Assembly (NCBI GenBank): GCA_029838195.1
Contig: JALGVJ010000038.1
Coordinates: forward strand, 1-64,000
Reading direction: 5' to 3'
Source: Promethearchaeota archaeon
GTDB lineage: Archaea > Asgardarchaeota > Lokiarchaeia > Sigyniarchaeales > SOKP01
Length of the DNA stretch: 64,000 nucleotides
Part shown: positions 1,537 through 18,573 of the stretch, one piece after another
How the letters are laid out: each line of letters begins with the position of its first letter
Numbering within the stretch: the stretch's first letter is position 1
Notes under the pieces: generated by a model
Told to the model about the DNA's origin: nothing
Seen by the model: only the letters and a program-made list of their open reading frames with translations
Database searches by the model: none
Position numbers and translations under genes: made by a program

Positions 1537-1838
1537 CTGAATTCTCGAAGGGGAAAAGATTCATTGAAGGAGGGGGGTTGGAAGCGATCATGTCTTTTTT
1601 TTACTGATTTTTTTATCGAAAGTAATTCAAATGATTTAGTGTGGTAGGAAAGGGAGGGAAGGGAAGTAGTTTTTCATGCGAGTGAGGGGGCATATTGGCG
1701 GGGTTTAGGGATGCGTGAGGGTAGAATATTCAATAAATTCAATTAAAAAAAAGTAATAGGTGGGGGCATGAGAAAAAATTTTTAAATTAGGTATGATTTA
1801 TCAAGTTTATTTAGAAAGTAAGGAAGGAGGTGGTAGCG

Positions 1839-2615
1839 ATGAGGTCGATTTATTTAATAACATCATTGGGATTGTCTCCTGGGGTGGTAACGGGGACTAT
1901 TGATGCGTTGCAATACGGCGATTTAGGGGAGAGTTATAGTCCAACCCATGTGGCTGTTATTACGACGGATAATGAATTAACACGGTTATCTTTAGAGGTG
2001 GTGGAGCATGATATTAAAAAGCATAATCCGCAACTTGTCATTCATCCATTTATCATGAGTGGGCTTTCTGATATTAACACGCGGGGGGACAATTACAAGG
2101 TAATGAAAATGTTTGTATCAGTGATAAGGGAGGGCATGAAATTAAAAGAAAAAGGAGCGGTGGAAGAGATTCACGTGAACATTGCGGGAGGGAGGAAGAC
2201 CATGTCGGGAATTTTTACGACGTTATCAAATATTTTCCCGGTGGACATGGTTTATCATTTAATTACCAGTCCGGAGATAGAGAGAGAGGGAAACATTAAA
2301 AATTTTTTGCGGGCGGATAATACATTAAATTTAGAAAAACTATCCTCTGAGGAGAGCAAGCGGATTTTACATCCGAAAGCGATGGGACTTCATGCGGTGT
2401 TAGTGGAGATTCCGATCTTGCGTTCCATTGATTTTAATGATCTTTTAGACGTGAGTTTAAAAATCCATGAGAGACGTAAAGTTCATTCTAATCATCATTT
2501 AATTCGTCTAATGGTAAGGCAAGGGTTATTGAGGGAAAAAGGGCGGGAAACATTGGAAATCACTTCGAGGGGGCATGTATTATTTGAGCTTTTGAGTAGT
2601 TTTAAAAAATCCTAA
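1839..2615 (+). CDS. CARF-domain protein (NE0113/Csx14/Crn1-like) with C-terminal winged HTH; candidate ring nuclease or regulator
   Basis: CARF motifs SLGLSPGVVT and IHVNIAGGRKTMS; wHTH-like tail (LEITSRGHVLF); GGAGGTG RBS before ATG 1839; next to the array. Confidence 0.8.
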   Translation: MRSIYLITSLGLSPGVVTGTIDALQYGDLGESYSPTHVAVITTDNELTRLSLEVVEHDIKKHNPQLVIHPFIMSGLSDINTRGDNYKVMKMFVSVIREGMKLKEKGAVEEIHVNIAGGRKTMSGIFTTLSNIFPVDMVYHLITSPEIEREGNIKNFLRADNTLNLEKLSSEESKRILHPKAMGLHAVLVEIPILRSIDFNDLLDVSLKIHERRKVHSNHHLIRLMVRQGLLREKGRETLEITSRGHVLFELLSSFKKS

Positions 2616-2866
2616 ATCAAATACTTATTTATTTTGGAATGATAAGGCGAAGAGGGCATTAAAGAAAGAAAAGACAGCACTAAATAAAAAAAAATAAATA
2701 AAAAAAAAAAATGAAATAAATAGCATTTTTTTCGGATGAACTGAGCAGGCTCAACATCGCTTGAAACAATTTTTAGCGAACGGAGTAAATTTACGATGAA
2801 GAGAAAAAAATAAAATTTTCGAGAGCGTTGAATATAAATAAATTATTACGATGAGAATGAGATCTC

Positions 2867-3088
2867 ATGAGGATTCAAAAAACCAGGACAATTATATATA
2901 TTTTGGGTCCTTCGAAGTGTATAGAAGTTGAATTTATCCATGCCGGCAAATGAATTAAAACGATCTCATTTAAATTTGCCCTTAGCAAGCTCCTTCCTAT
3001 TGATACAAGAGTTAAATTAATTTTTTTCATTCCTAAAAGCGTTGTTACTTCTTTACATGAAAACAAGGAGGAAATACTTCAAAGTTAA
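2867..3088 (+). pseudogene. Possible remnant of a Csx1-like CARF N-terminus
   Basis: Manual translation MRIQKTRTIIYILGPSKCIEVEFIHAGK*IKTISFKFALSKLLPIDTRVKLIFFIPKSVV, with an in-frame TGA at 2951; resembles Csx1-type CARF starts by eye only. Confidence 0.35.
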
Positions 3089-3618
3089 CGCTTTCGCGGG
3101 GTTTTGTGGATGCTTATGGTGATAAATGTTTTAATTTAGATTTAGAAACGCTTCATAAATTTCAACCCTTCAATCTTTAGGGCTTTATAACGTTCATGCT
3201 ACTAATTTTGAGGATAATTTTTTTTCAAAGGATCTTAAAAATTTAAATCGAATCAATGAAAGAGTATCAATAATGACTCATGTAATTGAATCTCAGAGAC
3301 ACTGAGTTATAGAATGCATTTCATTGGAACATTTATTAAATGACAGAAAGAAAACGAGCTTACTCTTTTAATACATTAAATATTATCAACGAGGAGCAAA
3401 ATAAAATAACACACTTGAAATCATGGTAAAAGATGAAATAAAAAAAATTTACTTACTTGAGAGAGAAAAGTTAAGTAGTGAATTGAGGGATTTTGGTTTT
3501 CTGAGGGATTTTAGTTTTCAACAAAATCAGCTAATTAAGACTGATAAAAAAACGAGACATCTCCTATTTTATTTCATGAAATAATAATCACGAGATTCCA
3601 AGAAGATTACAATAAGTT

Positions 3619-3681
3619 AATTAATTGAAAATTCATGTAAATTAATTGAAAATTCATGTAAATTAATTGAAAATTCATGTA
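3619..3681. repeat. Perfect tandem repeat, 3 x 21 bp (AATTAATTGAAAATTCATGTA)
   Basis: Units at 3619, 3640 and 3661, ending about 30 bp upstream of the CARF-HEPN ORF. Confidence 0.95.
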
Positions 3682-3713
3682 AAAAGATAATTTTCAATAG
3701 TAATGATCATTAT

Positions 3714-5351
3714 ATGGATTATAGTTATAAAATAGCACCAGAGAATAAAATGAACCAAGGAGAAGAAAAAGGAATGGGAGAAGCTGAGGAAGAATGCTTA
3801 GCGAGGGAAAAGGTTCGGGAGATTTCAGCTCAAATAAGTCAGATATTAGAGGAGATTCCCGAGTTAGAGAGCAACAGTGAAGAATATCAAGCAAAAATGA
3901 AAATGTTATGGGAATTGAGCAAGCAAAGATTTGTCGCTTGTTTTCACTCAGAATGGCATTTGGAAAAATATAAAGGCATTATTTTCACGGTGGGATATTC
4001 TCCCGAACCCATTATTTTATCCATATTAGCGAATGAACCGGAATGCGTTTTTTTCATTCATACGAGAGAAACAGAAAGAATCTTGGATGAAATCATCGAG
4101 CAGACGGGATTAAAGCCGTCCCAGTACAAGCGAGAAGGCATCGAGCGCGTTTCGGCTGCGGGTGCGTATGATTTAGTTAAAAGAGGAATTAAATTTCTTG
4201 TAGAGAAGAAAAACATCGAGAAAAATCGCATAGCGATTGATCCCACGGGAGGGACAAAAATCATGAGCGTGGGATGCGGCATTGCGGCGTCCGTATTCAA
4301 TTTAAATATTTTATACGTTAATAATCAAAATTATAATCCAAAATTGCGAAGACCTGAACCTGGTTCGGAGATTTTGGTTTCCATTCCGAATCCGTTCGAT
4401 ATATTCCAGGATGATAAACTAATTGATGGGCTAAAATATTTCTTGAATTTTAAATTTAATATTGCGGTGGATACTTTTAATCTCATCAAGCAGTCCTCGA
4501 ACAATCCGCTTTTTCCAGAATTATTGGCCAACTTGGCGAATTTATTGTTTCATTGGAACGCTATTGACTATAAGCGGGCATTAAGCTTTCTTGATAAGAC
4601 AAGAAATTCATTTAAACAATTAGGAGAACGAGTAGCCCACATACAAGACGAATTTTTACACATCCTCGACCAATGGGAACATTATTTATCTGAAATTCAT
4701 GATGGCATGATTCGTGGAGAAAAAGAGGTCGAAAAAATCAGCCCTCTCTTGATTCATGATATCTTGAAAAATGCAGAGCGAGAATTTTTTGACCAGGCCT
4801 ATAATAACGCCGCTCTCAAATATTATCGAACGATTGAAATGATCAATCAATACATTCTCTTCACGCATCATGAATTAAACACGCAAGATCCTGATTATTC
4901 ACGATTAAAATGGCAAGGGGCACTTCCTGCCTCTCAACACGATCTTAATCAATCCGTTTCTCCATCGACTATTGAACAAGCTCTTTTAAACAAATATAAC
5001 GAAACATGGCGTTTTATTTACCAAAAACAAGGAAAAGCAGGCGAATTCAAGGAACAATCCACCTTGCCCCGCAAGATTGGTCTTGTCGCAGGTACCATCT
5101 TGCGGTCCATTTTAGGTGAAAATGCCATCACGAAACAATCTATTTTTAACCTTCTCCAAATCATTGAAAAAAGAAATCAATCCATTTATGCCCACGGAAT
5201 AACTTCCATTAAAAAAAGTGATTGTGAAAAATTAAAAAAATGCGCAGAACAAATGTTAAAAGTAATCAAAATCCCAAGCCCCTTGAAAAATTACGTGTTT
5301 AATCAAAAAATGATGCAAACCATTGTTGACCTTTTCATCCAAGTCTTATAA
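3714..5351 (+). CDS. CARF-HEPN CRISPR-associated ribonuclease (TIGR02710/Csm6-like), cyclic-oligoadenylate effector
   Basis: CARF motifs FTVGYSPEPIILSI and IDPTGGTKIMS; C-terminal HEPN motif RNQSIYAH. Confidence 0.88.
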   Translation: MDYSYKIAPENKMNQGEEKGMGEAEEECLAREKVREISAQISQILEEIPELESNSEEYQAKMKMLWELSKQRFVACFHSEWHLEKYKGIIFTVGYSPEPIILSILANEPECVFFIHTRETERILDEIIEQTGLKPSQYKREGIERVSAAGAYDLVKRGIKFLVEKKNIEKNRIAIDPTGGTKIMSVGCGIAASVFNLNILYVNNQNYNPKLRRPEPGSEILVSIPNPFDIFQDDKLIDGLKYFLNFKFNIAVDTFNLIKQSSNNPLFPELLANLANLLFHWNAIDYKRALSFLDKTRNSFKQLGERVAHIQDEFLHILDQWEHYLSEIHDGMIRGEKEVEKISPLLIHDILKNAEREFFDQAYNNAALKYYRTIEMINQYILFTHHELNTQDPDYSRLKWQGALPASQHDLNQSVSPSTIEQALLNKYNETWRFIYQKQGKAGEFKEQSTLPRKIGLVAGTILRSILGENAITKQSIFNLLQIIEKRNQSIYAHGITSIKKSDCEKLKKCAEQMLKVIKIPSPLKNYVFNQKMMQTIVDLFIQVL

Positions 5352-6254
5352 TGCCTCATCTCAATCACGTTTCTCTTCACTCATTATCTTAATAATAATT
5401 AAAAAACCTCCTCCTCCGGCGCCCATTTTTCGAGTGAAACAATTAAAAATCTCTATTAACTTACTTACTTATTTTCTTTCCTTCCTTTCAAACCGCTTCT
5501 TACATTAACTCTGCTTATTTGGCTTATGACCTTTTTTTTCCATTTTTAATAGAGACTCCATGATTTAAGAAATTCTCCTAAAAAGGAATCTTAGAGTTAT
5601 TCCTTCCTTTCTATATTAGTAGTATTATAGAATATTTTAGGTCCTTTATTTTCTATATTTGAATAACCAGTTCTATTAATTTACACCTTTTTATCATGAT
5701 TGATTCTATAAACGAATTCCTCCAAATTTAATCTTCCCAAATCATGAATTCTTAATGCATTGCCTCATATAACCACTTATCAATAAGAACTTAATTATCA
5801 TCATAAAATTTTTCCTATTATCTCAATGGGAAAAGCGTCCTCAATTTTTTCCTTTAAACTCATGGGATACTCATCCCTATTTTTCTATTTAAACGTCTTA
5901 AATATTTTCGAGCAACACCCCACTCCCATTTATGAAGGAAAAAGACCACGAGAAAAATCTCTTTGCTATATCAGAAAAAAGTCAAATAAACTAAAATTAA
6001 AACTTAGTTGATGGAGCGATTTTTCATGAAATCAATGGTTCATGCCCATAGGGTTTTTTCTGGGTACTGGATATTAGGTTTCTCATTGATATGGATCTAA
6101 AAATTTCCAGATTCAACTTTTATTTTTCTTTCAAATGGGATGTGTTCTCTTGTTGCGAACAATATAAATAAATATTAAAGCCTTTAGAGGTTATCCCAGA
6201 TAAGGCTGTATTAGATTAAAAAACTAAGTATTTATAAAAATTTAATAAAAATTC

Positions 6255-6293
6255 ATTGCCCTCAAATACGAGGAGAGGGGTAAATGGAAAGTG
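6255..6293 (+). repeat. Degenerate copy of the solitary CRISPR-repeat-like unit
   Basis: ATTGCCCTCAAATACGAGG-AGAG-GGGTAAATGGAAAGTG aligns to the 7950/8393/11636 unit: 14/19 in the 5' part, a 4-nt insertion, and a near-identical 3' end. Confidence 0.55.
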
Positions 6294-6530
6294 CTCATTC
6301 ATTTGCTTGATGAGAGATTAAAATCGTTTGTCCATGGATTCGAAACACTCCATCAATTTTCTTAAAAGAACTACATTGCTATTAAAAATATTCATAAATT
6401 AATGAGCTCCCGATCATTTTCTATTAATTTTATGATTAATTCCCCTATTTCGTCCGCAGAAAATTTTTTTTACTGACGCTAAAAAGTAGTCATTTAATTT
6501 TATTTTATGTATTTCTTCTATAAAGGTTTT
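6293..6530 (-). pseudogene. Fragments homologous to the heptad-repeat nuclease gene at 13563-14393
   Basis: 6293-6343 matches 14018-14068 at 48/51 nt. 6391-6465 matches the 3' end 13562-13636 at roughly 79% (hand count). Confidence 0.8.
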
Positions 6531-6593
6531 TCTCTAATAAAATAGATTTACATTCATAGTATATTTTAATATTCTCTATTTTAATGTCATGTT

Positions 6594-6926
6594 TTAATAT
6601 TTTTTTGCGTATTTTAAAATTTCAAGGATAAAAGGATTTTTGTTTTTAATCATGTCATCAAATTCATTTTCCGTGTAAACGAGAGGTTCAATAGGGAGGT
6701 CGGTGAGTTCCAATATTTTTCCTATTCTTTCAATGAAGCGTTCCTTGAAATTGCCGATGATAATTAAATCAATATCACTTCCTTCATGGATATTGCCCGA
6801 TGCAAAAGAGCCGAATACGTAAATTGATTTTATTGGAAATTTTTGTTTTAAATCATTTAAGAAGGCATTTAATTTTAAATATATTTTTTCACGATCTTCA
6901 ATATTAATTCTGCATAATTTATGCAT
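6594..6926 (-). CDS. Minimal nucleotidyltransferase (MNT), antitoxin-type
   Basis: IYVFGSFASG...SDIDLIII Pol-beta motif; overlaps the HEPN gene. Confidence 0.9.
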   Translation of the reverse strand: MHKLCRINIEDREKIYLKLNAFLNDLKQKFPIKSIYVFGSFASGNIHEGSDIDLIIIGNFKERFIERIGKILELTDLPIEPLVYTENEFDDMIKNKNPFILEILKYAKKY

Positions 6927-7279
6927 TTTTCAGCATCACCTTTTTCATAAAATTCGGATGGCGTTAAATTTCCTGCTAAGCCATTCGGATAGCGTGTAGG
7001 GATATAAAACATGTCCAAAAATCTTGCTTCAGATTTTACATTTGAGAATTCCGATTGTTTTTTTTCCGCTTCCATTACCAATTCTTTTAAAGAATGGGTA
7101 ATGATTGAAGTGTAGCCTAAATTATATAAAAAAGCCTTCAAACTCTTTTCGGCGGCTTGCTGTGCTTGAAAACAACTCCAATCAAAGTTTTTAGAACTTA
7201 GACTGTTTTTAGCCGCATTTAAATCTGATTCAGCTTGTTTTAACCATCTTCGTGCTATTAATGACGCGATTTTTATCAC
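6875..7279 (-). CDS. HEPN domain protein (HEPN-MNT pair)
   Basis: WLKQAESDL, CFQAQQAAEKSLKA, THSL, YIPTRYPN. Confidence 0.92.
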   Translation of the reverse strand: MIKIASLIARRWLKQAESDLNAAKNSLSSKNFDWSCFQAQQAAEKSLKAFLYNLGYTSIITHSLKELVMEAEKKQSEFSNVKSEARFLDMFYIPTRYPNGLAGNLTPSEFYEKGDAEKCINYAELILKIVKKYI

Positions 7280-7816
7280 TTAGAATTATATTATGATAAT
7301 AATTATTACATTTTTTATTATTTTCATTATATTAAATTATACTTTATATTCATTTAAAATTAAATTATTTGCTTTTATATGACATGAGGGGAATTATTTT
7401 AGTCAATTAACTTCAAATTTTTTAAATGTGAATTCTGATTAGGCAATTTTATCTTAATATTATTGAAGCATTAATTTCAAATTAACTATAAAATATTTTT
7501 TATTTATAAAATATACCATATTGAATAATTAGAAGTTAAGTGGTAAAAATATGGAATTTTATGCTTTAAAAAAATTTTATTAAAAGAATATTAAGAAGAC
7601 TTAAATATGGATCATACCATATTATGATCAATAAATAAAATATATTTTTAAAAATAGGATTTCATATATTTAATAAAGACAAATAAAGACAATTATCAAA
7701 AAAAGTGCCTAAAGAATAGAAGATGGATGAAAATTAAAATATATATGGGGAAAAGCAGAGTATATTATTTTCAAATTTAGAACAATTTTTAAAAATAATA
7801 AAAATGAGGTGAAATA

Positions 7817-7945
7817 ATGCCGCTTTTAAAATTGGTCATACGACATGGGAAAGTAATGTTGGTTCCGAGAGAAGGAATCTCCACTATCGAAACTGAACAG
7901 ACGATCAGAATTTATAAAGAGAGTGATAAAAAGAAGGATGATTGA
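7817..7945 (+). CDS. 42-aa small hypothetical protein (not in the ORF track)
   Basis: GAGGTGA RBS, then MPLLKLVIRHGKVMLVPREGISTIETEQTIRIYKESDKKKDD*; stop lies 4 nt before repeat unit 1. Confidence 0.55.
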   Translation: MPLLKLVIRHGKVMLVPREGISTIETEQTIRIYKESDKKKDD

Positions 7946-7949
7946 ATGC

Positions 7950-7983
7950 ATTGTCCCCACACACGTGGGGGTGAATGGAAAGT
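7950..7983 (+). repeat. Solitary CRISPR-repeat-like hairpin unit, copy 1
   Basis: ATTGTCCCCACACACGTGGGGGTGAATGGAAAGT; stem CCCCAC/GTGGGG with a 4-nt loop. Confidence 0.85.
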
Positions 7984-8005
7984 AAAAAAAAAGAGGTGTA
8001 AAAAA

Positions 8006-8371
8006 ATGGAAATGAAAAAACTGAATTTAGATGAGGACGAATGGTTTTATCTCGTCGTCCAGGCGGAGCATGGGGAAGAGTATTTCATTCTTCTCCCCGT
8101 GGTGAATTCACGTGGATTCGTGATTATGGACTTGGACGCTCATAATTTCTGGGGAATTATGGAGTCGAGAGATCTCCGGTATTGGCTTTACGAACTCTTT
8201 GGTGACACGGACGTCCCACGGCATTTAGTCAATAGTCGGATATTGGACTTGAAATATCCCGCAAATTCATTCCTCGATATCGAGGAACTCATTTATCGGA
8301 GTCAAATGAAGCATGAAAAAGCCTTCGGTATATATCGGGGAGGTCCTTATCTGGATCCGCGGGAAAAATGA
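8006..8371 (+). CDS. 121-aa hypothetical protein
   Basis: GAGGTG RBS before ATG 8006. The ORF-track start at 7946 runs through the repeat. No family recognised. Confidence 0.7.
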   Translation: MEMKKLNLDEDEWFYLVVQAEHGEEYFILLPVVNSRGFVIMDLDAHNFWGIMESRDLRYWLYELFGDTDVPRHLVNSRILDLKYPANSFLDIEELIYRSQMKHEKAFGIYRGGPYLDPREK

Positions 8372-8392
8372 AAGAGTGAAAAAAATGATTAA

Positions 8393-8426
8393 ATTGTCCC
8401 CACACACGTGGGGGTGAATGGAAAGT
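8393..8426 (+). repeat. Solitary CRISPR-repeat-like hairpin unit, copy 2
   Basis: Identical to copy 1 over 34 nt. Confidence 0.85.
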
Positions 8427-8453
8427 GGGAGAATGGGAGTAGGGAGGGAGCAC

Positions 8454-8552
8454 ATGGTTAGTTGTAATGAATGCGGATATGAAAGAGAGGATATTGTAGA
8501 AGAGGGATTTTATTATTGTCCTATTTGTGATGAATATACCTATTTTTCATGA
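8454..8552 (+). CDS. 32-aa Zn-ribbon microprotein, copy A (not in the ORF track)
   Basis: MVSCNECGYEREDIVEEGFYYCPICDEYTYFS*; CxxC...CxxC; G-rich RBS; paralog at 11698. Confidence 0.75.
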   Translation: MVSCNECGYEREDIVEEGFYYCPICDEYTYFS

Positions 8553-9140
8553 TTCAAGCGCATGCGGAAAGTTTTAGGAATAGATTTAATATTTTTGAGA
8601 GAGGGGTTCTATAATAATTTATTTTGGGGGGGGCGTCATGAGATAAATTTTCGAGAGAATTTATTCCAAAACATCGCTTTCTCGGATTAATTTTTCACAG
8701 GAATAATTATGTGTCAATTTGTTAAATTCTTATATTTTTTAGAGAGAAATTTTTTTTCTTATATTAGGCTCATTAATCAATCTCATAAGGTTTGTTCCGC
8801 CCAAATTTTTCCTATTAAGTTATATGTATGACTTTCATTATCCTTTATTTCCCATGATAATTCATGGTGGGGGAGTATTTATATAACAAGTTTTTCATTT
8901 AATAGAGAATAGAAGAAAGATGATGCATTTTCTTTGATTTTCATATGAATTAAGATTTTATTATTTTTTCCTATTCAATATATAAATACATTTTTATTGA
9001 GAGAACTGGGCGTGCTAAGTAATGAATGTATTCAGAGAGGTTATTCTACTTTATTTTTTGTTTGTTTTTTGTCAGTATATTTCTAATTATTAATTTCTTA
9101 ATAAAATCCTTTATTATTTACGTTATTTTAATTATATATC

Positions 9141-11384
9141 ATGAATTTTAATCTTAATGATTTCATAAAAAATTGCAATAAAACATTACCTAATTATCTT
9201 CACCTACTCTCCAATTCAGGTTTATCTGAAGCGGAGATTAAATTGCGTAAGCGTTTAATTGTTTTATTTCTCAGAGAATATTTTATTAATAATAATACAA
9301 AGTATTATCGTTCTCAATTTAATGTTAATTTTTTCGGGAGATTTTTTTCTGAGAAACTCCAAAAAAGTAATTCTGAATTTTTTCAATTTTCTTTTAGTAA
9401 ATTACAATCCATTCTTAAAGATTACTTCGATTATTTGAAGACACAGAGAATTTTAAGTAGAAAATTACATCAAAACATCATTCGAAATCTTGATGCTAAA
9501 CAAGCGGTTATTAATAAAAAGAATGAGTCTAATAACGATTTAAATTCATATTCATTTCAAGAGGAGAGAGAAGATTTTTCGAAAGAAGTATTTGATAAAA
9601 TGCTTAAAAAATGTGATAAATGGGTAGAGGAATTTATTCAGACAGATTATTTTAAAAATTTAACGAACGAAGAGAAAAAATATATGGATTTCATTATATC
9701 TAGTTTTTTTCAATACTTATATATTTATTTTCTTAAAACGCCCGAACAAATTGATGAGGAGGATTTAGAAGAGATGTGTCTTTTCATTCTCCCGAGAAAA
9801 ATCACAGCAGAGGATTCCTATTTCAAGGCAATAGTACCGGTTTTAACCGGTTTTTTTAAATTTTTAGAAAATAAAGGTATAATTCATAATGCCAATGAAT
9901 TAAACACGAAATTAAATGGAATGCGAGAAAAAATCATGGAAGAGGTAAGAAATCCTAATAATTGGGGAATATCTAAGTTTTTACTCAACAGTGCCAAGGC
10001 GGCAGGAATAAATATATATGACGAGAGAGAGCTTAATGCCTATTTTAACGTTTTAAATGAATTGAATTTAGTACTTCAAAATATAAAAGATCAAGAATTT
10101 TTAACTATAGAAGATGTTGAGGATCTCAAGACTAGTGAAATTATTAAAAAATTACGCACTTTTGGCATTACCTTTGATAGAAAGCAATTTATAGAAGACA
10201 CACGTCGCATGTTTTCTATCTTCGAAATACTGAAAGAATGGAAGGATAAGAATTTTATAAAAGATGACTTAGGTAATTTATACTTCATTTGCTTGGCAAT
10301 TATTGTTTTATGGAATCGATTGTCTCCTGGTTTAGCCAATAGAGAACAGATAATTTCTCAGATAATAGAAGGATATGGGCTGATTAAAGATCATGAAATA
10401 GTTAAAGGATGTAAACTTTGGCTTCAAGTATGGGAGCTCATAAAAGGACGTATCCAACCGGAAATGTCTTCTATCGAGGATTTAGAAAAATTATTCAGTT
10501 GGACAACCTCTATTTATGATTGGACGCTTGATTTATCAGTTGAATTGTATAATGCGGGCGTTGAGGCAAATAAAGCTTTTTTTCTAAAAAGGATAAGATT
10601 TTGTAAAGAAATTCTCAAATATTTTCCTAAATCTGATGATTCTTATCTCCAAAACATTATGATGGATTTAGCTGAAACTTATTTTTTATTAGGTTTAATA
10701 GATCTTGGCGATAAAATGTATCGTATTTTAGTTAAGAAATTTCCTTCATTTACATTTGGCTATATAAGATGGGGGGATCAATATGCTGGAATTTATAATT
10801 ATAACATGGAGCTTTTTAATCCTGAAAAAGCATTGTCTATTTATAAAATGGGGTTAAAAAATGGGAGAGAAGACATAAAAATTCTAAAAAACCACATTGA
10901 AGAGCTTTTATTTTTAAAAAAAGCGCTACCATTTAAAGAGAAAATGCTTTCAGATTTTAAAGCATTTCTATCTAAAAAGAATTTAAGTCAGAAAAATCAT
11001 GAAAAAAAAGTAAAACATGTGGAATTTTTTTTAGATTTTGCTCTTTTTATCTATGATATTGATGATCTTAAAAGTCTTGCTGAGTATAGTCCAGATATTA
11101 TTTTGGAATTCCTGGCAAGCTGGAGCATTGAATATTTAAACCTTTCTAAAACCTCTCAAAAGGAATTGATTAGAAACATTAAATATTATTTCATGTATCT
11201 CTTCAATATAATTCCCTTTTCGGATGAGGAAATGGAAAGAATAAAAAAGCTTTTAAATGCTACTGAATATTATCTTAAGCGTCTAAATGAATATAAAGAA
11301 TTGAAGGAACTAATAGCAACTAATAAATTAAAAATTGATGATCTCTTGAAATGGAGGGAACTCTATACAAAATGGCAAGATTGA
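9141..11384 (+). CDS. Large helical hypothetical protein with TPR-like segment
   Basis: 747-aa ORF. Segments LPRKITAEDSYF, NPNNWGISK and GYIRWGD resemble SEC-C-associated helical proteins, but no SEC-C motif was seen. Confidence 0.6.
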   Translation: MNFNLNDFIKNCNKTLPNYLHLLSNSGLSEAEIKLRKRLIVLFLREYFINNNTKYYRSQFNVNFFGRFFSEKLQKSNSEFFQFSFSKLQSILKDYFDYLKTQRILSRKLHQNIIRNLDAKQAVINKKNESNNDLNSYSFQEEREDFSKEVFDKMLKKCDKWVEEFIQTDYFKNLTNEEKKYMDFIISSFFQYLYIYFLKTPEQIDEEDLEEMCLFILPRKITAEDSYFKAIVPVLTGFFKFLENKGIIHNANELNTKLNGMREKIMEEVRNPNNWGISKFLLNSAKAAGINIYDERELNAYFNVLNELNLVLQNIKDQEFLTIEDVEDLKTSEIIKKLRTFGITFDRKQFIEDTRRMFSIFEILKEWKDKNFIKDDLGNLYFICLAIIVLWNRLSPGLANREQIISQIIEGYGLIKDHEIVKGCKLWLQVWELIKGRIQPEMSSIEDLEKLFSWTTSIYDWTLDLSVELYNAGVEANKAFFLKRIRFCKEILKYFPKSDDSYLQNIMMDLAETYFLLGLIDLGDKMYRILVKKFPSFTFGYIRWGDQYAGIYNYNMELFNPEKALSIYKMGLKNGREDIKILKNHIEELLFLKKALPFKEKMLSDFKAFLSKKNLSQKNHEKKVKHVEFFLDFALFIYDIDDLKSLAEYSPDIILEFLASWSIEYLNLSKTSQKELIRNIKYYFMYLFNIIPFSDEEMERIKKLLNATEYYLKRLNEYKELKELIATNKLKIDDLLKWRELYTKWQD

Positions 11385-11490
11385 AATTATTCAAGAAATC
11401 ATAAAATTATGAGAAAATAGAGAAAAAGGAGAATTTAAAAAAAATGAATATCTCCAAAGATGTAAGACTCTAACTATAAATTTAGATAAA

Positions 11491-11600
11491 ATGTCCTATC
11501 ATCCCATCACTCTCTCCATCGAAGAAATGATTTATCGGAGACAGATTAAGCACCACGGACCCTTGGACACGAAAATGGAAAATCCTCTCCAGGATTCAAA
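11491..11600 (+). pseudogene. 3' remnant paralogous to the 8006-8371 gene
   Basis: IEEMIYRRQIKH versus IEELIYRSQMKH, with matching DNA and the same position upstream of a repeat unit. Confidence 0.6.
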
Positions 11601-11635
11601 GAAAAAAAAAGAGGTAAAAAAAATGATAAAATTTA

Positions 11636-11669
11636 ATTGTCCCCATACACGTGGGGGTGAATGGAAAGT
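11636..11669 (+). repeat. Solitary CRISPR-repeat-like hairpin unit, copy 3
   Basis: ATTGTCCCCATACACGTGGGGGTGAATGGAAAGT; a single C>T change gives a U-G wobble in the stem. Confidence 0.85.
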
Positions 11670-11697
11670 GGGAGAATGGAAGTAAGGGGGAGAGCAC

Positions 11698-11796
11698 ATG
11701 GTTAGTTGTAATGAGTGTGGATTTGAATGCGAGGAGATTGAGGCGGAAGGATTTTATTATTGTCCAATATGTGATGATTTTACCTATTTTTCGTGA
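11698..11796 (+). CDS. 32-aa Zn-ribbon microprotein, copy B (not in the ORF track)
   Basis: MVSCNECGFECEEIEAEGFYYCPICDDFTYFS*; same length and same four Cys as copy A. Confidence 0.75.
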   Translation: MVSCNECGFECEEIEAEGFYYCPICDDFTYFS

Positions 11797-12177
11797 ATAG
11801 GGTCACGTGGAAGGGTTAGGGAGGAGGGAAAAGAAAGACCAGATATTTTTGAGAGTGTTTTAAAAGAGTGAGTGTTTTAGGTGTTTATTGACGATATTTT
11901 TTTACATGTGAATTTAATCGAAAAAACGGTTTCTTTCGAGAAATAGACCGTGAGAGCAGGGATCGTTAGAGGATTAGATGGATGGAAACAGAGAGGGGTA
12001 GATCGGGGGTGATTAGATGCATGGACGCGTGATTTGGGCGGGTGCGATTTTGGAAGAAAGGGTGGATCGCATGGGAGAAAGGGTACGTTTTAAAGGTGAA
12101 TGGAGATGCTAAAAAATTTAAGAGAAGAAGAAGATGATTAAGGTATCATTTTTAACTTTGGGTGATTAGAAGGGAGT

Positions 12178-13227
12178 GTGAGGGTTATTAACGAGGGAGA
12201 GAATAGGCGGCATCTAATCAGCCAGAAGAGAGACATCGATGATAAATATAAAGAGATAATAGACAGATTTATTGACGCATTTGATGAGATGTTAAAGGCA
12301 GGGGAGCGGGGCGTGGAGGTGAAGTGGATTAAGCCGTGGAGTCCACGAGGGGTATTGCATTCAAATATTTTCACGCCATATAGAGCGTATTCCGGGTGTA
12401 ACCAGTTGTTGTGTGATATATATTGTTTAAAACATGGATGGAGTTCAAGGTATTGGATAACTGAGGCCGGAATTAAAAAAGTGGGGGGTAAGGTGCGTGC
12501 TGGTGAGGAGCCTGTAATTATTCTTGGTTTTATTCCAAATTTAATTAGGGTTAAAATGGAGGGGGAAGAAGGGGAGAAATCGGAGCCGGAGGAAATTTAT
12601 GATGTTAGCTATTATATATTGGAGATACCAATTTATAATGTGGAGCAGACCCTGAACGTTCCTCTTCCAAGGCGTCGTGTTATTAAGAAAGAGAATAAGG
12701 CAGAGCGCATTATTGAAAGGATGGCGGATAAACCCCGGATTGTTCATGAAAAGATAGACGAGGCATTTTATAATGTTGTCACGGATACAATTCATTTGCC
12801 TCTTTTAGAAAATTTCAAATCAAGGGCATTTTATTATGATACTCTTTTTCATGAGTTAGCTCACAGTACGGGGCATGAAAGCCGATTAAATCGCAATACC
12901 TTGAATGAAGATGATTATTTTAACGTGCATTTATATGCAGAAGAGGAGCTCATTGCGGAATTGGCGAGCGCATTTTTATCTGATTATTGCGGGATTTCAT
13001 GTGAACGCTTGACAAATAACACCATGGAATACTTGAAGGCGTGGATCACCCGATTAAAAGAATGGAGAAAGCAAAAACCGGAAAAGCTCGCAATATATTC
13101 ATCAATGGCGATGCAGGCTTCAAATTATATTCTTGGCCGAAAGCCACCTAAACGCATCGACTTGTTTAAGCAAAAGCACGGGAAAAAAGTCGTAGAATTA
13201 AGTTTAGAGCAAGATATAGCGATTTAA
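12178..13227 (+). CDS. ardC: ArdC-family antirestriction / ssDNA-binding protein with zincin-like domain
   Basis: WIKPW, YSGCNQL, GGKVRAGE, YYDTLFHELAHSTGHESRLNR (HExxH), YAEEELIAEL. Confidence 0.9.
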   Translation: MRVINEGENRRHLISQKRDIDDKYKEIIDRFIDAFDEMLKAGERGVEVKWIKPWSPRGVLHSNIFTPYRAYSGCNQLLCDIYCLKHGWSSRYWITEAGIKKVGGKVRAGEEPVIILGFIPNLIRVKMEGEEGEKSEPEEIYDVSYYILEIPIYNVEQTLNVPLPRRRVIKKENKAERIIERMADKPRIVHEKIDEAFYNVVTDTIHLPLLENFKSRAFYYDTLFHELAHSTGHESRLNRNTLNEDDYFNVHLYAEEELIAELASAFLSDYCGISCERLTNNTMEYLKAWITRLKEWRKQKPEKLAIYSSMAMQASNYILGRKPPKRIDLFKQKHGKKVVELSLEQDIAI

Positions 13228-13562
13228 AGAGGGGGATGAGGCGGAAAGCGGAGAGAGGGATGAGATTTAAGCATTTGGGATTTATTTACAAAAGTGTTAA
13301 GTGGTCTTAATTATCATGCGATTCGATCTTGAAAGAAATGAATTGTATTATGGGGAGAATTTTTTGGGAAAAAAAAAGGGGAGTGGGCTTAATAGGTTTT
13401 CATGAGAAATAGAATGAGAGTATATAAAATGACATGAATGAAATTATTTTATTGGGAATGGAAAATGTTTTAAAGAAAGAAGATACATTTAAACATTTAA
13501 AACAAGGTAGCACGCGAAGGAGGGTTTTAAGGGGGGTTTTTTCAATTAAAAATAAAACAAGT

Positions 13563-14393
13563 TCATAAATTGATGAGTTCACAATTGTTTTGCCTTAATT
13601 TTATAATTAGTTCTCCCATTTCTTCTGCTGAAAATTCGGTGGTGGCTACCACGAAATATCCCTTGAATTTAACATCGTATAATTTTTCTACGAATATTTT
13701 TTTTCGCAAGAAAGTTTCGATTTTTTCTTTTGTTCTTAAAACGGAAACGATTTCAACGATGACGGGGGGATCGATTGAGAAACCATCTATTTCAACTTCT
13801 GTAATCCCGGGAGAAACGAATTTTTCGGGATCTTGAAGTATTTTCTTTTCTAACCTCACGTTTTCAATGCCTTCACTTTGAAGTAATTTAATGACTACAT
13901 TTCTCCCAAATTGCTCAAATTGTTTTCCAAGGGTTTTTTGTAGACTTTTAAGCATAATTTTTATCTCATGAAAATGGGTTTCAATTGCTTCAAATCGCTT
14001 ATCTGCGGATTCAAATCGCTCATTCATTTGCTTGATGAGATATTCAAATCGCTTGTCCATGGATTCGAATCGCTTGTCCATGGATTCGAATCGCTTGTCC
14101 ATGGATTCGAATCGCTTGTCCATGGATTCAAATCGCTTGTCCATGGATTCGAATCGCTCATTCATTTGCTTGATGAGATATTCGAATCGCTTGTCCATGG
14201 ATTCGAATCGCTCATTCATTTGCTTGATGAGAGCCTCAAATCGCTTGTCCATGGCTTTATTTAATTGAACGATATCTTCATGAGTAGCTACAACGCCAGA
14301 CAATGCGCTAATGATGGCACCTTTAACTTCGTCGCTTTCTCTGATTAATTTTGGGAGAATTTTTAATAATTCATCAATGTTTATATGGCTCAT
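13563..14393 (-). CDS. Coiled-coil heptad-repeat protein with C-terminal PD-(D/E)XK-like domain
   Basis: (MDKRFES)n repeats followed by EVEIDGF...VIVEI. Confidence 0.75.
   Translation of the reverse strand: MSHINIDELLKILPKLIRESDEVKGAIISALSGVVATHEDIVQLNKAMDKRFEALIKQMNERFESMDKRFEYLIKQMNERFESMDKRFESMDKRFESMDKRFESMDKRFESMDKRFEYLIKQMNERFESADKRFEAIETHFHEIKIMLKSLQKTLGKQFEQFGRNVVIKLLQSEGIENVRLEKKILQDPEKFVSPGITEVEIDGFSIDPPVIVEIVSVLRTKEKIETFLRKKIFVEKLYDVKFKGYFVVATTEFSAEEMGELIIKLRQNNCELINL
13990..14255. repeat. Intragenic 21/33-bp tandem repeats
   Basis: GAATCGCTTGTCCATGGATTC units interspersed with CGCTCATTCATTTGCTTGATGAGA units. Confidence 0.9.
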
Positions 14394-14902
14394 CTAAGGT
14401 ATAAAAGAACTTTTTTATAGAAAAAATTTTGTATTAAATTCATTCGGGAAGGTTTAAATTATTTAAAATTAAAACATTGTATCATGAATCGTGTAGGGTT
14501 TGAGACTTGTAGGATGAGGGTGATTTCCTTAAAAGTTTTCGAGGACAATGCGAGAAAAGACATGCAATCATCCCATGGTGAACATTTTTTCCGGTGTTTT
14601 GAATTTCAAGGATAAAGCAGGGGAGGATTCATTTTCTTCTTTTCCCGTTTTCTTGTGATTTTGTTTAGAGCAAGAATTAAATTTGCTGGCATGGTTTGAT
14701 TAATTTAAAACCACGTGTGTTGTTGTTATTCTTTAGATTTAACCTAAACGGATAAAATATACAACCATTAACAGAAAAGGAGGTAGATAATTTTCCAAAT
14801 TTTATTTATTTTAATTTTTTAGAATAACACCACGTATCAATGCACGTGATATATGAAAATAAAAAGAGAAATGTCGTCTTTGATCATTAGTAATATTACC
14901 AA

Positions 14903-17896
14903 GTGTATCGAATTATGAACGTGCATGGAGACATCAGGTTGGATTTAGGTGCCTTGAAGCGAGCAAAACAAGAGTTTGACGTTGAGCATTGGTTTGCTAC
15001 TCTTTTTGATCAATTAAGATTGGAGTATGAAGCCCAGCATCGGATTTTGAAGGGGCGTCCCGATTGTTTAATTGGAGATGTCATTATTGATTATAAATAC
15101 GGTATTTCAGAAAGAGAATTGGAACGTTGGGTTCGTTCAAAAGGCCGTCAATACGTACAAGAATATTTTTCAACACGCGGAAGATATCCCTCGCTTTTAA
15201 TCGTACTCACGGAAGAATACATGTATTATTATCATGATAAAAATCTCGAATTGGAGAGCAAGCGAGCGATTACAGAAAAAACCTTGCTCTCTTTAATCGA
15301 GAGTCTTTTAGATCCCAAGGTATTAGATTCAGAACAGTTTGCCACGCTATTTGGAGTGGATTCGCCGTTGTACGTGTTAGCCCATTCACGATTGAAACGG
15401 CATTTTGAGGAGCGGGCGGGGGAGAAAACCGCATGTTATCAGCAATGGAAAAAACATTTTTCCTTAGCGTACCATGATGAAGATATAGGAAAAGATTTGT
15501 TCTTGCGGCATTCCTATTTGAGCATGCTGATAAAGCTAATTCTTTATCGGGATTTCATGGTGCCTCATGAATATTCGAGAGATTCTTTTAAACAATTAGA
15601 AAATTATTTTGAAATATTAGGAATCTCCTTATTTCATCATGATTTTTTCAGATGGGTAATCAATGTGGAGGGGCTGTGCAATGACTTTTTCAACAAGTTG
15701 AAAACGGTAAATTTTGAAGCCACGGATATTTTTCGGACGATTTATCAAGAAATGATCATTTCGGGCGTGCGCCATCGCTTGGGCGAATATTATACTCCTG
15801 AGCAATTATGTAAAAAAATGATTGAGAAAGAATATGAGATCGGCATGCGGGTTTTAGATTCTTCTTGTGGCTCGGGCACGTTTCTCATTGAGATGCTCAA
15901 AAAAATAGATGGGCATTTTTCTTTAGGAGAGGACGAGGAGCCGCCTGAAGAATGGTTTAAAGCCGTGAATAATATTTTTGGTTTTGATATTAATCCCATT
16001 GCCATCTTAACTTCGAAAGCCAACCTTCTTCTATACTTGAAGAAAAGACGGCCGTGGATAGAAAAAATCTCAATTAATATTTATTTATGTAATTCTATTG
16101 ATCCCTTGAAATTTTCTCCCACGCAAGACATACAGCTCGGAAGATTTTATAGTTTTTGCATCGACCTTTTAGGCGAAGAGAAGGAATTGCGGATTCCTCA
16201 AGAAGCGTTGAGTGCTGAAAATATAGAGTTTTTTCAAGCATTAATTAGAGCCATATATAATGTATGGGAAGATTTTAACCATTTTCAAGATGCTTGGGAG
16301 GCGGGCCTGACAAGACTTCCGGAAGCGACACTGAAATGTTTTTTACAACAAAATGCAAAATTAATAGATTTCCTTCAGAATTTTTTTCATCAACTTTTTG
16401 AGTTAAAAGCTCAAGATAAAGATCATATTTGGTTGTACATTCTCAATAATCTCGTGGGAATACGCTCTTTATTATTGCAAAAAAAGATGGATTTAATCAT
16501 TACTAATCCTCCTTGGTTAACCTATAAGGATGCTGATGATAAGCTTAGAATGGATATGAAACGCATTTCCGAGGAGCTTAATATTAAACCAGGTGCTCAG
16601 AATATCACGAACATGGAGGAGGCCGTGGTATTTTTATATAAAATTCCCGATTTGTACTTGCGTCGAGACGGAAAGGGAAGGGTCGCCTTTGTCATGCCCA
16701 GGTCCTTATTAGTTTCCTCTCAAAATCAACACGCTCGGAGATTTGATCAGTTTGAGAATATTGAATTTTTTGAATTTAATGATTTAATATTTAACATAGA
16801 GTGTTGTTGTTTTTTTGGAACATTCGTACCGAAAGTCGTTAATCGAAGGGAGGTATTTTCTAAATATCCGGCAAGATGTAGTCATTTTGATGCTTCCACG
16901 ATGGTCTTGCTCGAAGTATATGAATTGGAGCCGTACGTGTATTTTGAGCCAAAAAGAGGAGAGAAATATCTTGTTAAAAAATTAGTAAAAAAGGAGGAAA
17001 AGGAAAAGCTACTTCCTTGCTACTTATCTGAGTATTATAATGATTTCATTCAAGGAGCGGATTTAATTCCAAAATCATTATTGCACGTCAAGATCCGTGG
17101 CATTTCCAATGATGGAAAAATTGCGATTATTGATCCGTGGATCTCTCCGCAAGCGAAAGGATTTTGGAAACAAGAGCATTTTTCTCGGGTACGTGTTGAA
17201 ATGGAAAATCTATTCAAAGCCACGTTATCGAGGGGTTTATATCCCTATTATATTGAATTGCATGACATTTTTCTTCCCTTAAATTCCCAATTGGAGTATA
17301 GAATAGACACGCTTGGGCCTTTTAGTAGAAAACATTGGAGGTATATTAAATCCATTTATGAGAAAGAAACGGGGAGGGATCTTTTTGAAGTAGGGATCAA
17401 TTATCGGAATAAATTATGCAAGGAAAATGCCGTGAAAGAGGAGCAGAGAAAATCCTACAAGGTGGTATTTCCCAATGCTAAATCCTTAATGGCGGCTGTT
17501 ATTAAAGGCCCTCAAGGAAGAATTTATGTGGATTCCACATTATATTATTTCGGCACGGACAATGAAAAAGAAGCTTATTATCTTTGTGGAATGCTCAACA
17601 TCACGGAACTCAAGAAAAGCACGAAAATTATTAGCGATACCCGACACCATCATAAACGGCCCCTTTATTTTAATATTCCTAAATATAGAGGCTCGAAAGA
17701 ACAACTCGAAATTGCACACTTGGCAAAAAAATGTTCCGATAAGATTGAATCGCTTGTTAAATCCGGAATTGAAATAAAAATGGCGGCGATACGGGAGCTG
17801 ATCAAGGATGAGCACCAAAAAATTCATGAAGTGGGTATCAAGATTCTTAAAAGCGCAGAAGGAACTCAGATTATAAAAGAATATCTATTAGATTAA
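14903..17896 (+). CDS. Fused restriction-modification enzyme (type IIG/IIL-like; N6-adenine MTase with N-terminal nuclease)
   Basis: GRPD...IIDYK at the N-terminus; GEYYTP, VLDSSCGSGTFL, GFDINP, ITNPPW; TRD-like C-terminus. Confidence 0.85.
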   Translation: MYRIMNVHGDIRLDLGALKRAKQEFDVEHWFATLFDQLRLEYEAQHRILKGRPDCLIGDVIIDYKYGISERELERWVRSKGRQYVQEYFSTRGRYPSLLIVLTEEYMYYYHDKNLELESKRAITEKTLLSLIESLLDPKVLDSEQFATLFGVDSPLYVLAHSRLKRHFEERAGEKTACYQQWKKHFSLAYHDEDIGKDLFLRHSYLSMLIKLILYRDFMVPHEYSRDSFKQLENYFEILGISLFHHDFFRWVINVEGLCNDFFNKLKTVNFEATDIFRTIYQEMIISGVRHRLGEYYTPEQLCKKMIEKEYEIGMRVLDSSCGSGTFLIEMLKKIDGHFSLGEDEEPPEEWFKAVNNIFGFDINPIAILTSKANLLLYLKKRRPWIEKISINIYLCNSIDPLKFSPTQDIQLGRFYSFCIDLLGEEKELRIPQEALSAENIEFFQALIRAIYNVWEDFNHFQDAWEAGLTRLPEATLKCFLQQNAKLIDFLQNFFHQLFELKAQDKDHIWLYILNNLVGIRSLLLQKKMDLIITNPPWLTYKDADDKLRMDMKRISEELNIKPGAQNITNMEEAVVFLYKIPDLYLRRDGKGRVAFVMPRSLLVSSQNQHARRFDQFENIEFFEFNDLIFNIECCCFFGTFVPKVVNRREVFSKYPARCSHFDASTMVLLEVYELEPYVYFEPKRGEKYLVKKLVKKEEKEKLLPCYLSEYYNDFIQGADLIPKSLLHVKIRGISNDGKIAIIDPWISPQAKGFWKQEHFSRVRVEMENLFKATLSRGLYPYYIELHDIFLPLNSQLEYRIDTLGPFSRKHWRYIKSIYEKETGRDLFEVGINYRNKLCKENAVKEEQRKSYKVVFPNAKSLMAAVIKGPQGRIYVDSTLYYFGTDNEKEAYYLCGMLNITELKKSTKIISDTRHHHKRPLYFNIPKYRGSKEQLEIAHLAKKCSDKIESLVKSGIEIKMAAIRELIKDEHQKIHEVGIKILKSAEGTQIIKEYLLD

Positions 17897-17904
17897 ATCT
17901 CATG

Positions 17905-18573
17905 TTAATTACTATCGCATTCTCGTTCCTGAGAATATCGAAAAATTATTTCAATTACTTCTTTCCAAGAGAATATTCTGATAATATTTTTAGCGTGAAT
18001 ATCGGTTTGGTTCCATGGTTGATTGAATAATAACAAATATTTTTCAGGATAATCCGGCATGGCATCAATGAGATAAGGATTATCATCAATAAAAATATCG
18101 TGCTCATGTTTTAATTTGGAATCGGGGGGTGTTTTTTCCACCATGATTAATTCACGATAATGAATAGTTTTTACAATTCCATGGTATTTTAAGATTTCTA
18201 CTAAATTTTCCCGATTTTCTTTTTCTCGTGCCGTAACGATATCAACGGACCACGTTTGATTTAACAATTCCAAAATACGTGGAATATCTTCATCAATGAG
18301 GGGCGCTAAAATTTTATTATTCAGGATTAAATTAAAAGCAGTATCTATTTCTTTTTCAGGAAGGTTCCACTGCAAAAAAGAATCCCATTCTACAATATCT
18401 TGAATGGCATAATTCGTATTAAATTTCTCATTTAAGTAATGGCAAAACGGACTCATGATATCCAAGATCACGCCGTCCACGTCAATGGCTAATTTTAAAA
18501 TTCGGCATTTTTTCTTATTCATTTTCTTGATTGTACTCCATGTTTCATTAATTAAACAATTAAATAATCTCAT
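17905..18573 (-). CDS. HAD-family 5'(3')-deoxyribonucleotidase-like (NT5C)
   Basis: IDVDGVI, IVTAR, IFIDDNP, FNQPWN. Confidence 0.85.
   Translation of the reverse strand: MRLFNCLINETWSTIKKMNKKKCRILKLAIDVDGVILDIMSPFCHYLNEKFNTNYAIQDIVEWDSFLQWNLPEKEIDTAFNLILNNKILAPLIDEDIPRILELLNQTWSVDIVTAREKENRENLVEILKYHGIVKTIHYRELIMVEKTPPDSKLKHEHDIFIDDNPYLIDAMPDYPEKYLLLFNQPWNQTDIHAKNIIRIFSWKEVIEIIFRYSQERECDSN

Follow-up and report, generated by a model that had tools for sequence, protein, structure and literature searches.

Solitary type I-E CRISPR repeat-like units among the small genes of a Lokiarchaeial defence island: candidate RNA anti-CRISPR elements

Introduction

What is the role of a hairpin which resembles a CRISPR repeat, when it is found alone and several times between the small genes of an archaeal island? 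The question is raised by a stretch of 64,000 nt from Promethearchaeota archaeon (Lokiarchaeia; assembly GCA_029838195.1, contig JALGVJ010000038.1, positions 1 to 64,000), which we will call the window. It contains a unit of 34 nt, present three times and a fourth time in a diverged form, in a run of small open reading frames (ORFs) upstream of a gene for an ArdC-type anti-restriction protein. An original prediction, made from the sequence of the window, had proposed that these units act against CRISPR defence. Here we describe their distribution, their relationship with type I-E repeats, their conservation and their variation among strains, and we compare the possible explanations of their presence.

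Results

Solitary repeat units in the island

The assembly has 4.5 Mb in 94 contigs, with a completeness of 96.6% and a contamination of 7.9%. In all of it the 34-nt unit is found three times (units 1–3 in Table 1), always on the + strand and never in reverse, while no match is expected by chance (0 in 100 shuffles). A search for the hairpin together with its tail gives four places only in the genome, the three units and the diverged unit 4, all of them inside 5.4 kb and on the + strand. Units 1–3 are separated by 443 and 3243 bp with genes in between, so they do not form an array; the spacers of type I-E arrays have 32–33 nt. Each one is a full-length repeat match, intergenic and with no second repeat within about 100 bp, as is characteristic of the solitary repeat units (SRUs) described in mobile elements. 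The original prediction had placed the three units on the same strand, at these distances and between small ORFs, and we have found them so: they are solitary, specific to one strand and restricted to this island.

The low number of copies also decides on another possibility. Dispersed repeats, such as repetitive extragenic palindromes (REP) or miniature inverted-repeat transposable elements (MITE), are ruled out by the presence of three exact copies and a diverged one on a single strand in 5.4 kb; with three copies in the genome and none in reverse, the unit is not of this type. A genome-wide spread similar to that of REP, MITE or insertion sequence ends had been named beforehand as evidence against the prediction, and it is not seen: the three copies have one orientation.

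As RNA, the unit folds into a 7-bp stem, which includes a closing U-G pair, with a loop of 4 nt. The single substitution in unit 3 retains the pairing as U-G. The stem-loop, the size of the loop and the neutral effect of the substitution on pairing had been correctly predicted; the stem had been given as 6 bp and it has 7 when the closing U-G is counted. Units 1–3 nearly fill the intercistronic gaps in which they are found. Only 22–28 nt are left up to the downstream start codon, and every such start codon has a Shine-Dalgarno (SD) site. Unit 4 is preceded immediately by an AT-rich, TATA-like tract and borders with its 3' end on a pseudogene fragment, which starts exactly there. In spite of its changed stem sequence it preserves the head, the tail and the pairing potential.

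Other interpretations of the unit itself have been discarded. An internal start site (SD and ATG) is unlikely: the SD-like G-run abuts the ATG (0 nt), the spacing at neighbouring genes is 4–8 nt, and the reading frames do not agree among copies, as had already been noticed. A C/D-box small RNA gives poor box matches. An Rfam search of the units, both with gathering and with permissive thresholds, matched no family, the CRISPR direct repeat families included.

Table 1. Position of the repeat units and of neighbouring features in the window
Feature	Position	Strand	Remarks
Diverged unit 4	6255–6293	+	ATTG head and 11-nt tail as in units 1–3; different 5-bp stem, 11-nt loop
Two pseudogene fragments	6288–6466	-	Paralogue of the coiled-coil gene 13563–14393
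ORF42	7817–7945	+	Basic, 42 aa, SD site; no family match
Repeat unit 1	7950–7983	+	Starts 4 nt past the ORF42 stop; 22 nt from its end to the start codon of ORF121
ORF121	8006–8371	+	Acidic orphan, isoelectric point (pI) 4.9
Repeat unit 2	8393–8426	+	Same sequence as unit 1; 27 nt from its end to the start of Zn-ribbon gene 1
Zn-ribbon microprotein 1	8454–8552	+	32 aa, CxxC...CxxC, pI 4.05
13-nt block with T5 run	8589–8601	+	Same in both copies of the duplication; candidate archaeal terminator of the unit and Zn-ribbon module
ORF747	9141–11384	+	Helical/TPR-like protein, with the duplication on both sides
ORF121 C-terminal remnant	11507–11635	+	Left portion of copy 2 of the duplication
Repeat unit 3	11636–11669	+	One C>T with respect to units 1 and 2; 28 nt before the start of Zn-ribbon gene 2
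Zn-ribbon microprotein 2	11698–11796	+	83/99 nt identical to copy 1; all four Cys present
ArdC-type anti-restriction protein	12178–13227	+	ArdC-N and zincin peptidase; matches a phage anti-restriction family

Relationship with type I-E repeats

We have scanned for related arrays 400 genomes of the phylum and then 135 genomes of the family. One genome of the same family (G227) has an array of 24 repeats with a period of 61 nt. Its repeat has the hairpin part of the unit unchanged and, but for the first base, equals the initial 24 nt of it; the array adjoins a complete type I-E locus with the genes of Cas3, Cse1, Cse2, Cas7e, Cas5e and Cas6e. The same repeat, headed by ATTG as in the unit, forms an array in the metagenome-assembled genome of Promethearchaeota archaeon Loki_b31. 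The 18-nt core of the hairpin, when compared with all GTDB species, is found in 74 loci, mostly bacterial I-E arrays of Chloroflexota, Planctomycetota, Desulfobacterota and Streptomyces.

Among the loci which were fetched, the closest array repeat, of a bacterial I-E array, coincides with the initial 29 nt of the unit in 27/29 positions. The sole difference is the change of CC into TG among the final four bases of the 8-nt handle: the conserved end of the I-E handle, ...ACCG, is absent and all copies of the unit read ...ATGG. Every copy also bears an extension of 5 nt beyond the 29-nt I-E layout. As a result of the altered handle, pairs can form between the ATT head of the unit and AAT of its tail, and the helix becomes longer. 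The part which Cas6e recognises (5' flank, 7-bp stem, loop and cleavage site) is intact. From its sequence we conclude that the unit is a derivative of a type I-E CRISPR repeat, in which the hairpin has been kept, the handle altered and 5 nt added. The I-E pattern seen in the first 29 nt by the original prediction is thus borne out, both by the 27/29 match and by the I-E cas genes next to the repeats of G227.

The form with the altered handle is used by none of the arrays found in the phylum, family and metagenome scans. In public sets its exact SRU form is present in 0 metagenome contigs and 0 viral contigs. A looser pattern gave 130 metagenome matches, which we have rejected: all of them lie within ordinary arrays whose spacer begins by chance with AAAG. 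We have also rejected a viral contig with a solitary I-E repeat (L209, IMG/VR UViG_3300008002_000368, positions 1232–1260); it is a bacterial sequence with 52% GC, unrelated to the window. Its repeat has the canonical handle and is in itself a bacterial SRU candidate.

Repeats similar to those of type I-E are found without Cas6e in five other genomes of the family (G159, G163, G184, G232 and G278), with at least three mini-arrays or stubs. G184 has a mini-array of three units and G278 one of two; the first unit of G278 has 30/33 nt in common with the unit of the window, the extension included. These orphan mini-arrays, at L086 (G184:C30, about 86.9–87.2 kb) and L006/L071 (G278:C429), have spacers of 32–33 nt, a degenerate last unit and an AT-rich tract upstream, and no Cas6e was found there.

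An almost identical I-E repeat is present in Chloroflexota, Desulfobacterota and Planctomycetota with a high GC content (L013, L025, L030) and in Loki-like contigs with about 30% GC (L005, L017, L105, L152). This suggests a transfer of the I-E system between the two domains. A further observation concerns the I-E locus of G227 (L224, G227:C32, about 2.7–3.0 kb): the Cas1-like frame next to the array apparently ends after about 90 residues and is followed by an unannotated ORF of 270 aa. The adaptation genes of this locus may be broken.

Conservation of the unit in an old duplication

ORF747 is flanked by the two copies of a direct duplication, about 410 bp long and diverged (8267–8680 and 11507–11935). 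Units 2 and 3 are found inside it, so they are not independent of each other. The duplicated block includes the C-terminal region of ORF121, the unit, a purine-rich leader, the Zn-ribbon ORF and the 13-nt T5 block. Its two copies have an overall identity of 77%, while the unit is identical in 33/34 positions. If the unit had diverged as the duplication has overall, the probability of finding at most one change in it would be 0.0015; with the divergence of the Zn-ribbon ORF, which is 16%, it would be 0.02. No other part of this old duplication is as well conserved as the unit. Between the two Zn-ribbon ORFs, 6 codons differ synonymously and 7 non-synonymously, and none of the four Cys is lost, so the pair has the appearance of a real gene on which some constraint acts.

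A natural variant of the island

Through a 44-aa reading of the Zn-ribbon ORF we have reached a JGI (Joint Genome Institute) metagenome contig of 51 kb, Ga0366835_1004619 (L227), which has 98.5% identity over 10.2 kb with positions 8393–18481 of the window. In the place where the window has unit 1, ORF121 and unit 2, this contig has a single unit with the same handle variant. The left flank of the single unit corresponds to the ORF42 region (88–91% identical), its right flank to the leader of the Zn-ribbon gene. The lone unit joins the left flank of unit 1 to the right flank of unit 2; therefore the 443-bp cassette formed by ORF121 and a unit is a presence/absence polymorphism with its breakpoints inside the unit. 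The units are the breakpoints of gain or loss of this cassette, and they also mark a boundary between segments of unequal divergence in the two sequences. The simplest cause is recombination between two identical direct repeats. The change may have been either a loss or a gain.

The variant contig also lacks 5.3 kb of the window (2218–7496), and the junction shows only a microhomology TTTTTA. As a result the CARF gene is truncated, with its C-terminal part gone, while Csm6, unit 4 and the HEPN/nucleotidyltransferase pair are missing. To the left of the junction the place of the CRISPR array is taken by different defence genes, which are GmrSD/SLFN-like, AAA and SMC-like. From these two differences it follows that the island is highly variable among close strains.

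CRISPR systems of the host

The host arrays use four repeat families, and the body of the unit is unrelated to all of them. One is the 37-nt repeat of the array at 2–1540 of the window, from which the unit had already been distinguished in the original prediction. Another contig of the assembly (C48) ends in the leader and in an array of this same repeat, so it evidently runs on into the window. It has a type III-A operon (Cas10, Csm2–5, Cas6 and Csx1) and a type I-B-like operon (Cas7, Cas5, Cas3, Cas6, Cas4 and Cas1), with two Cas6 genes in all. The original prediction had noticed a similarity to class 1 handles; the last 8 nt of the unit coincide with the resident tags in only 6/8 positions.

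The spacers of I-E arrays which are low in GC or of Loki origin, 91 in all, have no match of at least 26/32 in the host genome. The 40 nt which follow each unit, when compared with the type I-E cas loci of the genomes G227 and G225, give only short A-rich chance matches, so that no Cracr-like targeting is seen.

C48 (L221, L222) also contains a second large array with the repeat of window 2–1540. A non-coding stretch of about 300 bp is found three times near arrays, at 5690–6010 in the window and at 9240–9620 and 9720–10080 in L222. One copy of this stretch (C48, about 44,051, minus strand) has a G-run followed by the tail of the unit with a 2-nt insertion, without the 5' arm.

Genes of the island

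After the array we find a CARF protein (Cas_NE0113), a Csm6-type CARF-HEPN protein and unit 4 with pseudogene debris. They are followed by a HEPN/nucleotidyltransferase pair on the minus strand, then by the run of small genes with units 1–3, ORF747 and ArdC. Beyond ArdC there is a coiled-coil gene, then a type IIG restriction-modification enzyme. The island is variable and has probably been acquired horizontally. The signs of a mobile element are indirect: the scarcity of ArdC, the orphan genes, the pseudogene debris and the strain-level indels in a defence island. Of the 135 genomes of the family, only the present one has ArdC, apart from a fragment in another. The original prediction had drawn attention to small ORFs and ArdC around the units: small, acidic orphan ORFs and an ArdC which is restricted to 1–2 of 135 family genomes do adjoin them, which is the pattern published for SRUs and Racrs, or RNA anti-CRISPRs (PMC10651486).

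ORF42 is probably the first gene of the run. For ORF121 no homologue was found in two very large protein searches nor a match in the ESM Atlas, and its AlphaFold model has a confidence score (pLDDT) of 47, which makes it unusable. Searches for the function of ORF747 gave only vague TPR-like leads. In a genome of the same genus (G162) it has a homologue with 39% identity, which is placed elsewhere and has no units nearby. The restriction-modification enzyme of the window and the genes which follow it have counterparts in G162, with a protein identity of about 70%; the units and ArdC are absent from this genome. PHROGs and PADLOC added nothing for the small ORFs, and none of the small proteins is similar to any known anti-CRISPR protein (Acr). 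To consider them as Acr-type proteins is a guess.

The pseudogene fragments next to unit 4 match (tblastn) residues 55–81, with one in-frame stop, and 253–276 of the coiled-coil protein, whose gene is DUF3782-like. They are a rearrangement scar between unit 4 and the HEPN/nucleotidyltransferase pair. Two paralogous coiled-coil genes (13981–14273 and 24154–24369) have tandem repeats of 21 nt and 54 nt with heptads of the MDKRFES type; their opposite strand is open as well and gives spurious ORFs.

Discussion

A possible role as RNA anti-CRISPR

We favour, with a probability of roughly 0.45, an interpretation of the units as Racr-like SRUs of type I-E origin, with a role which depends on Cas6e, in an operon similar to those which combine racr and acr genes. 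The units would have been copied from the type I-E repeat which is found in a few related Lokiarchaeial genomes and in many bacteria. They lie in the intercistronic leaders of small, mostly acidic orphan genes, upstream of ArdC and beside the resident III-A/I-B locus. In a cell with a type I-E system, Cas6e would bind and cut each hairpin of the messenger RNA. The cleavage might produce an RNA anti-CRISPR decoy, or it might free the messages of the small genes downstream, or both, as in racr-acr operons. In the present host, where no I-E system has been found, the units would have no target.

Several published results agree with this interpretation. SRUs in mobile elements mimic CRISPR repeats, type I-E Racrs are functional and a single transcript can hold both a racr and an acr gene (PMC10651486). 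Inhibition by Racrs requires the stem-loop to which Cas6 binds, and changes in the 8-nt handle are tolerated (PMC10651486).

A number of observations weigh against it. The first is the host. The lack of any CRISPR system with a similar repeat in the host or its relatives had been named beforehand as evidence against the prediction. Such a repeat does exist in relatives, in the complete I-E locus of G227 and the array of Loki_b31; the host assembly shows no I-E cas gene, no cas remnant and no I-E array, and consequently no target for a decoy was found in it. Profiles of Cas6e (PF08798) and Cas7e (PF09344) gave no match in the host genome, with the positive controls detected, nor did a tblastn search with all the I-E Cas proteins of G227. 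In G162, of the same genus, neither I-E Cas proteins nor an I-E array were found. Cas6e is present in 3/134 genomes of the family, all of one other genus, and none of these three has an SRU outside an array. In the survey of Racrs, 83% of SRUs correspond to their own host's subtype (PMC10651486), which is not the case for the unit of the window. The second is the context: the ORFs screened contain no integrase, relaxase, recombinase, virus or plasmid gene or other hallmark of mobile elements, and from about 20 kb on the annotated ORFs are chromosomal housekeeping genes. The third is the conservation of the unit in a host without Cas6e, together with the retention of the tail of unit 4 while its hairpin sequence has changed. 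Both features hint at a constraint which does not depend on Cas6e.

Other explanations

The absence of I-E genes in the host is easily understood if the units are neutral relics of a lost system or of a decayed mobile element, now inactive, with units 1 and 2 kept identical by a recent duplication or by gene conversion. The orphan mini-arrays and stubs without Cas6e in five related genomes are in agreement with such an origin, as are the decayed appearance of unit 4 and the abundance of pseudogene fragments and rearrangements in the region. We consider it unlikely. Relics would not be expected to be significantly better conserved than the remainder of an old duplication, nor to appear three to four times in different surroundings, each time filling an intercistronic leader on the strand of the genes, with one handle variant throughout the copies and Ga0366835_1004619. 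Furthermore, the leftovers of an array would be about 61 bp apart and not separated by genes.

The conservation of the unit in a host free of Cas6e suggests another alternative, a hairpin exapted for cis-regulation without any Cas protein. It would be an intercistronic element (a stabiliser, an RNase site or a translational operator) read by a factor of the host or of the operon. The constant distance of 22–28 nt to the downstream start with an SD in between could be explained in this way. So could the longer helix which results from the pairing of the ATT head with the AAT tail after the change of the handle, the persistence of head, tail and pairing potential in unit 4 with a different stem, and the preservation of the unit, the Zn-ribbon gene and the T5 run as a block. 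However, no candidate binding protein is known and the microproteins, being acidic, are poor RNA binders. The stem equals that of foreign I-E repeats, while an element which were purely structural would drift; the SD-like G-run at 0 nt from the internal ATG makes a start site unlikely. An exapted hairpin of this kind appears to us improbable, to the same degree as the relics.

A more elaborate version of the Racr-like interpretation attributes a dual role to the hairpins. On RNA they would be decoys or processing sites for Cas6e; on DNA they would act as portable blocks of homology by which counter-defence cassettes are swapped. The island might then be an "anti-defence cassette array" with CRISPR-repeat mimics, moving among Asgard populations whose defence islands vary from strain to strain. 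With the change of CC into TG in the handle, the downstream message would not be loaded as a guide by Cascade. We think that this combination is quite unlikely.

It is still harder to accept that the units produce guides similar to CRISPR RNAs (crRNAs), in which the resident III-A/I-B systems would read the last 8 nt as a class 1 5' tag and the following RNA would be a guide; that of unit 4 would be antisense to the coiled-coil gene 13563–14393. The 51 nt past unit 4 do correspond to 14018–14068 in 48/51 positions, antisense to this gene, but the match is accounted for by the paralogous pseudogene fragment, which bears a stop codon. There is a promoter-like tract before unit 4, the tail agrees in 6/8 positions with the resident tags, and crRNA-like regulators and units with one guide are known. 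Nevertheless the body of the unit is unlike the four resident repeat families and leaves nothing for the resident Cas6 to recognise, a second flanking repeat is absent, and units 1–3 have only their own genes downstream, so that their pseudo-spacers match themselves alone.

Finally, the units might be junctions of cassettes for a site-specific recombinase, as in integrons, an idea prompted by the breakpoints of the ORF121 cassette inside the unit and by the gene remnants which abut units 3 and 4; it is very improbable, because homologous recombination between identical direct repeats of 34 nt suffices without any enzyme, the ORFs screened include no integrase or recombinase, and the other large indel of Ga0366835_1004619 has only the TTTTTA microhomology. 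An integron attC site is ruled out: the unit is a simple hairpin of 34 nt, attC an imperfect palindrome of 55–140 nt with paired core sites.

Significance

SRUs and Racr candidates are of a known kind, but the lineage is new: in the literature which we have searched there is no description of them for the Lokiarchaeial lineage. The features which stand out are the presence of several intercistronic copies, the fixed variant of the handle and the role of the units as cassette breakpoints. If the units work as proposed, they would be the first concrete candidate for an RNA anti-CRISPR or anti-defence operon in an Asgard (Lokiarchaeial) lineage, where mobile elements and the conflicts of viruses and hosts are barely known, and several orphan microproteins would become Acr candidates. 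If they are relics or hairpins which do not depend on Cas, their interest is modest. Apart from function, one family of type I-E repeats is common to bacteria and Loki archaea; in the family studied, I-E-type repeats without Cas6e (five other genomes) are more widespread than I-E cas genes (three genomes); and a repeat mimic can be a crossover point for the gain or loss of cassettes among natural strains.

Comparison with known systems

Regulators similar to crRNAs and mini-arrays of the CreA type also are stand-alone repeat-like sequences near a CRISPR-cas locus and toxin-antitoxin genes, and unit 4 precedes a sequence which matches a resident gene, as they do. Such elements reproduce the repeat of the resident system, mostly as a pair which encloses a pseudo-spacer, and they are directed at a promoter beside a protospacer adjacent motif (PAM). 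In contrast, the repeat of the window is single and of a non-resident subtype, and we have found no match with an I-E cas promoter.

The type I-E repeat, substrate of Cas6e, has the layout which is found in the first 29 nt of the unit. The unit differs by not being arrayed, by its handle end ...ATGG and by the 5-nt extension common to its copies.

From the racr-acr operons, such as RacrIC1-AcrIC5 with its bicistronic RNA (PMC10651486), the island differs by its small proteins, which resemble no known Acr and whose anti-CRISPR activity is a guess. The arrangement is similar, with a repeat mimic and a gene for a small protein on one presumed transcript, and in the window the module formed by the unit, the Zn-ribbon gene and the T-run is conserved as a block.

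The closest comparison is with the Racrs themselves (RacrIF1, RacrIE1/2; Camara-Wilpert et al. 2023, PMC10651486). The units of the window differ from them by their location in a chromosomal island without recognisable virus or plasmid genes, by their three to four copies across an operon instead of one small RNA gene with its own promoter, and by the lack of the cognate subtype I-E in the host. In both cases a lone intergenic mimic of a repeat, with an intact stem-loop, adjoins small uncharacterised genes. By analogy with RacrIF1, in which changes of the handle are tolerated, the altered handle of the units is compatible with activity as a decoy.

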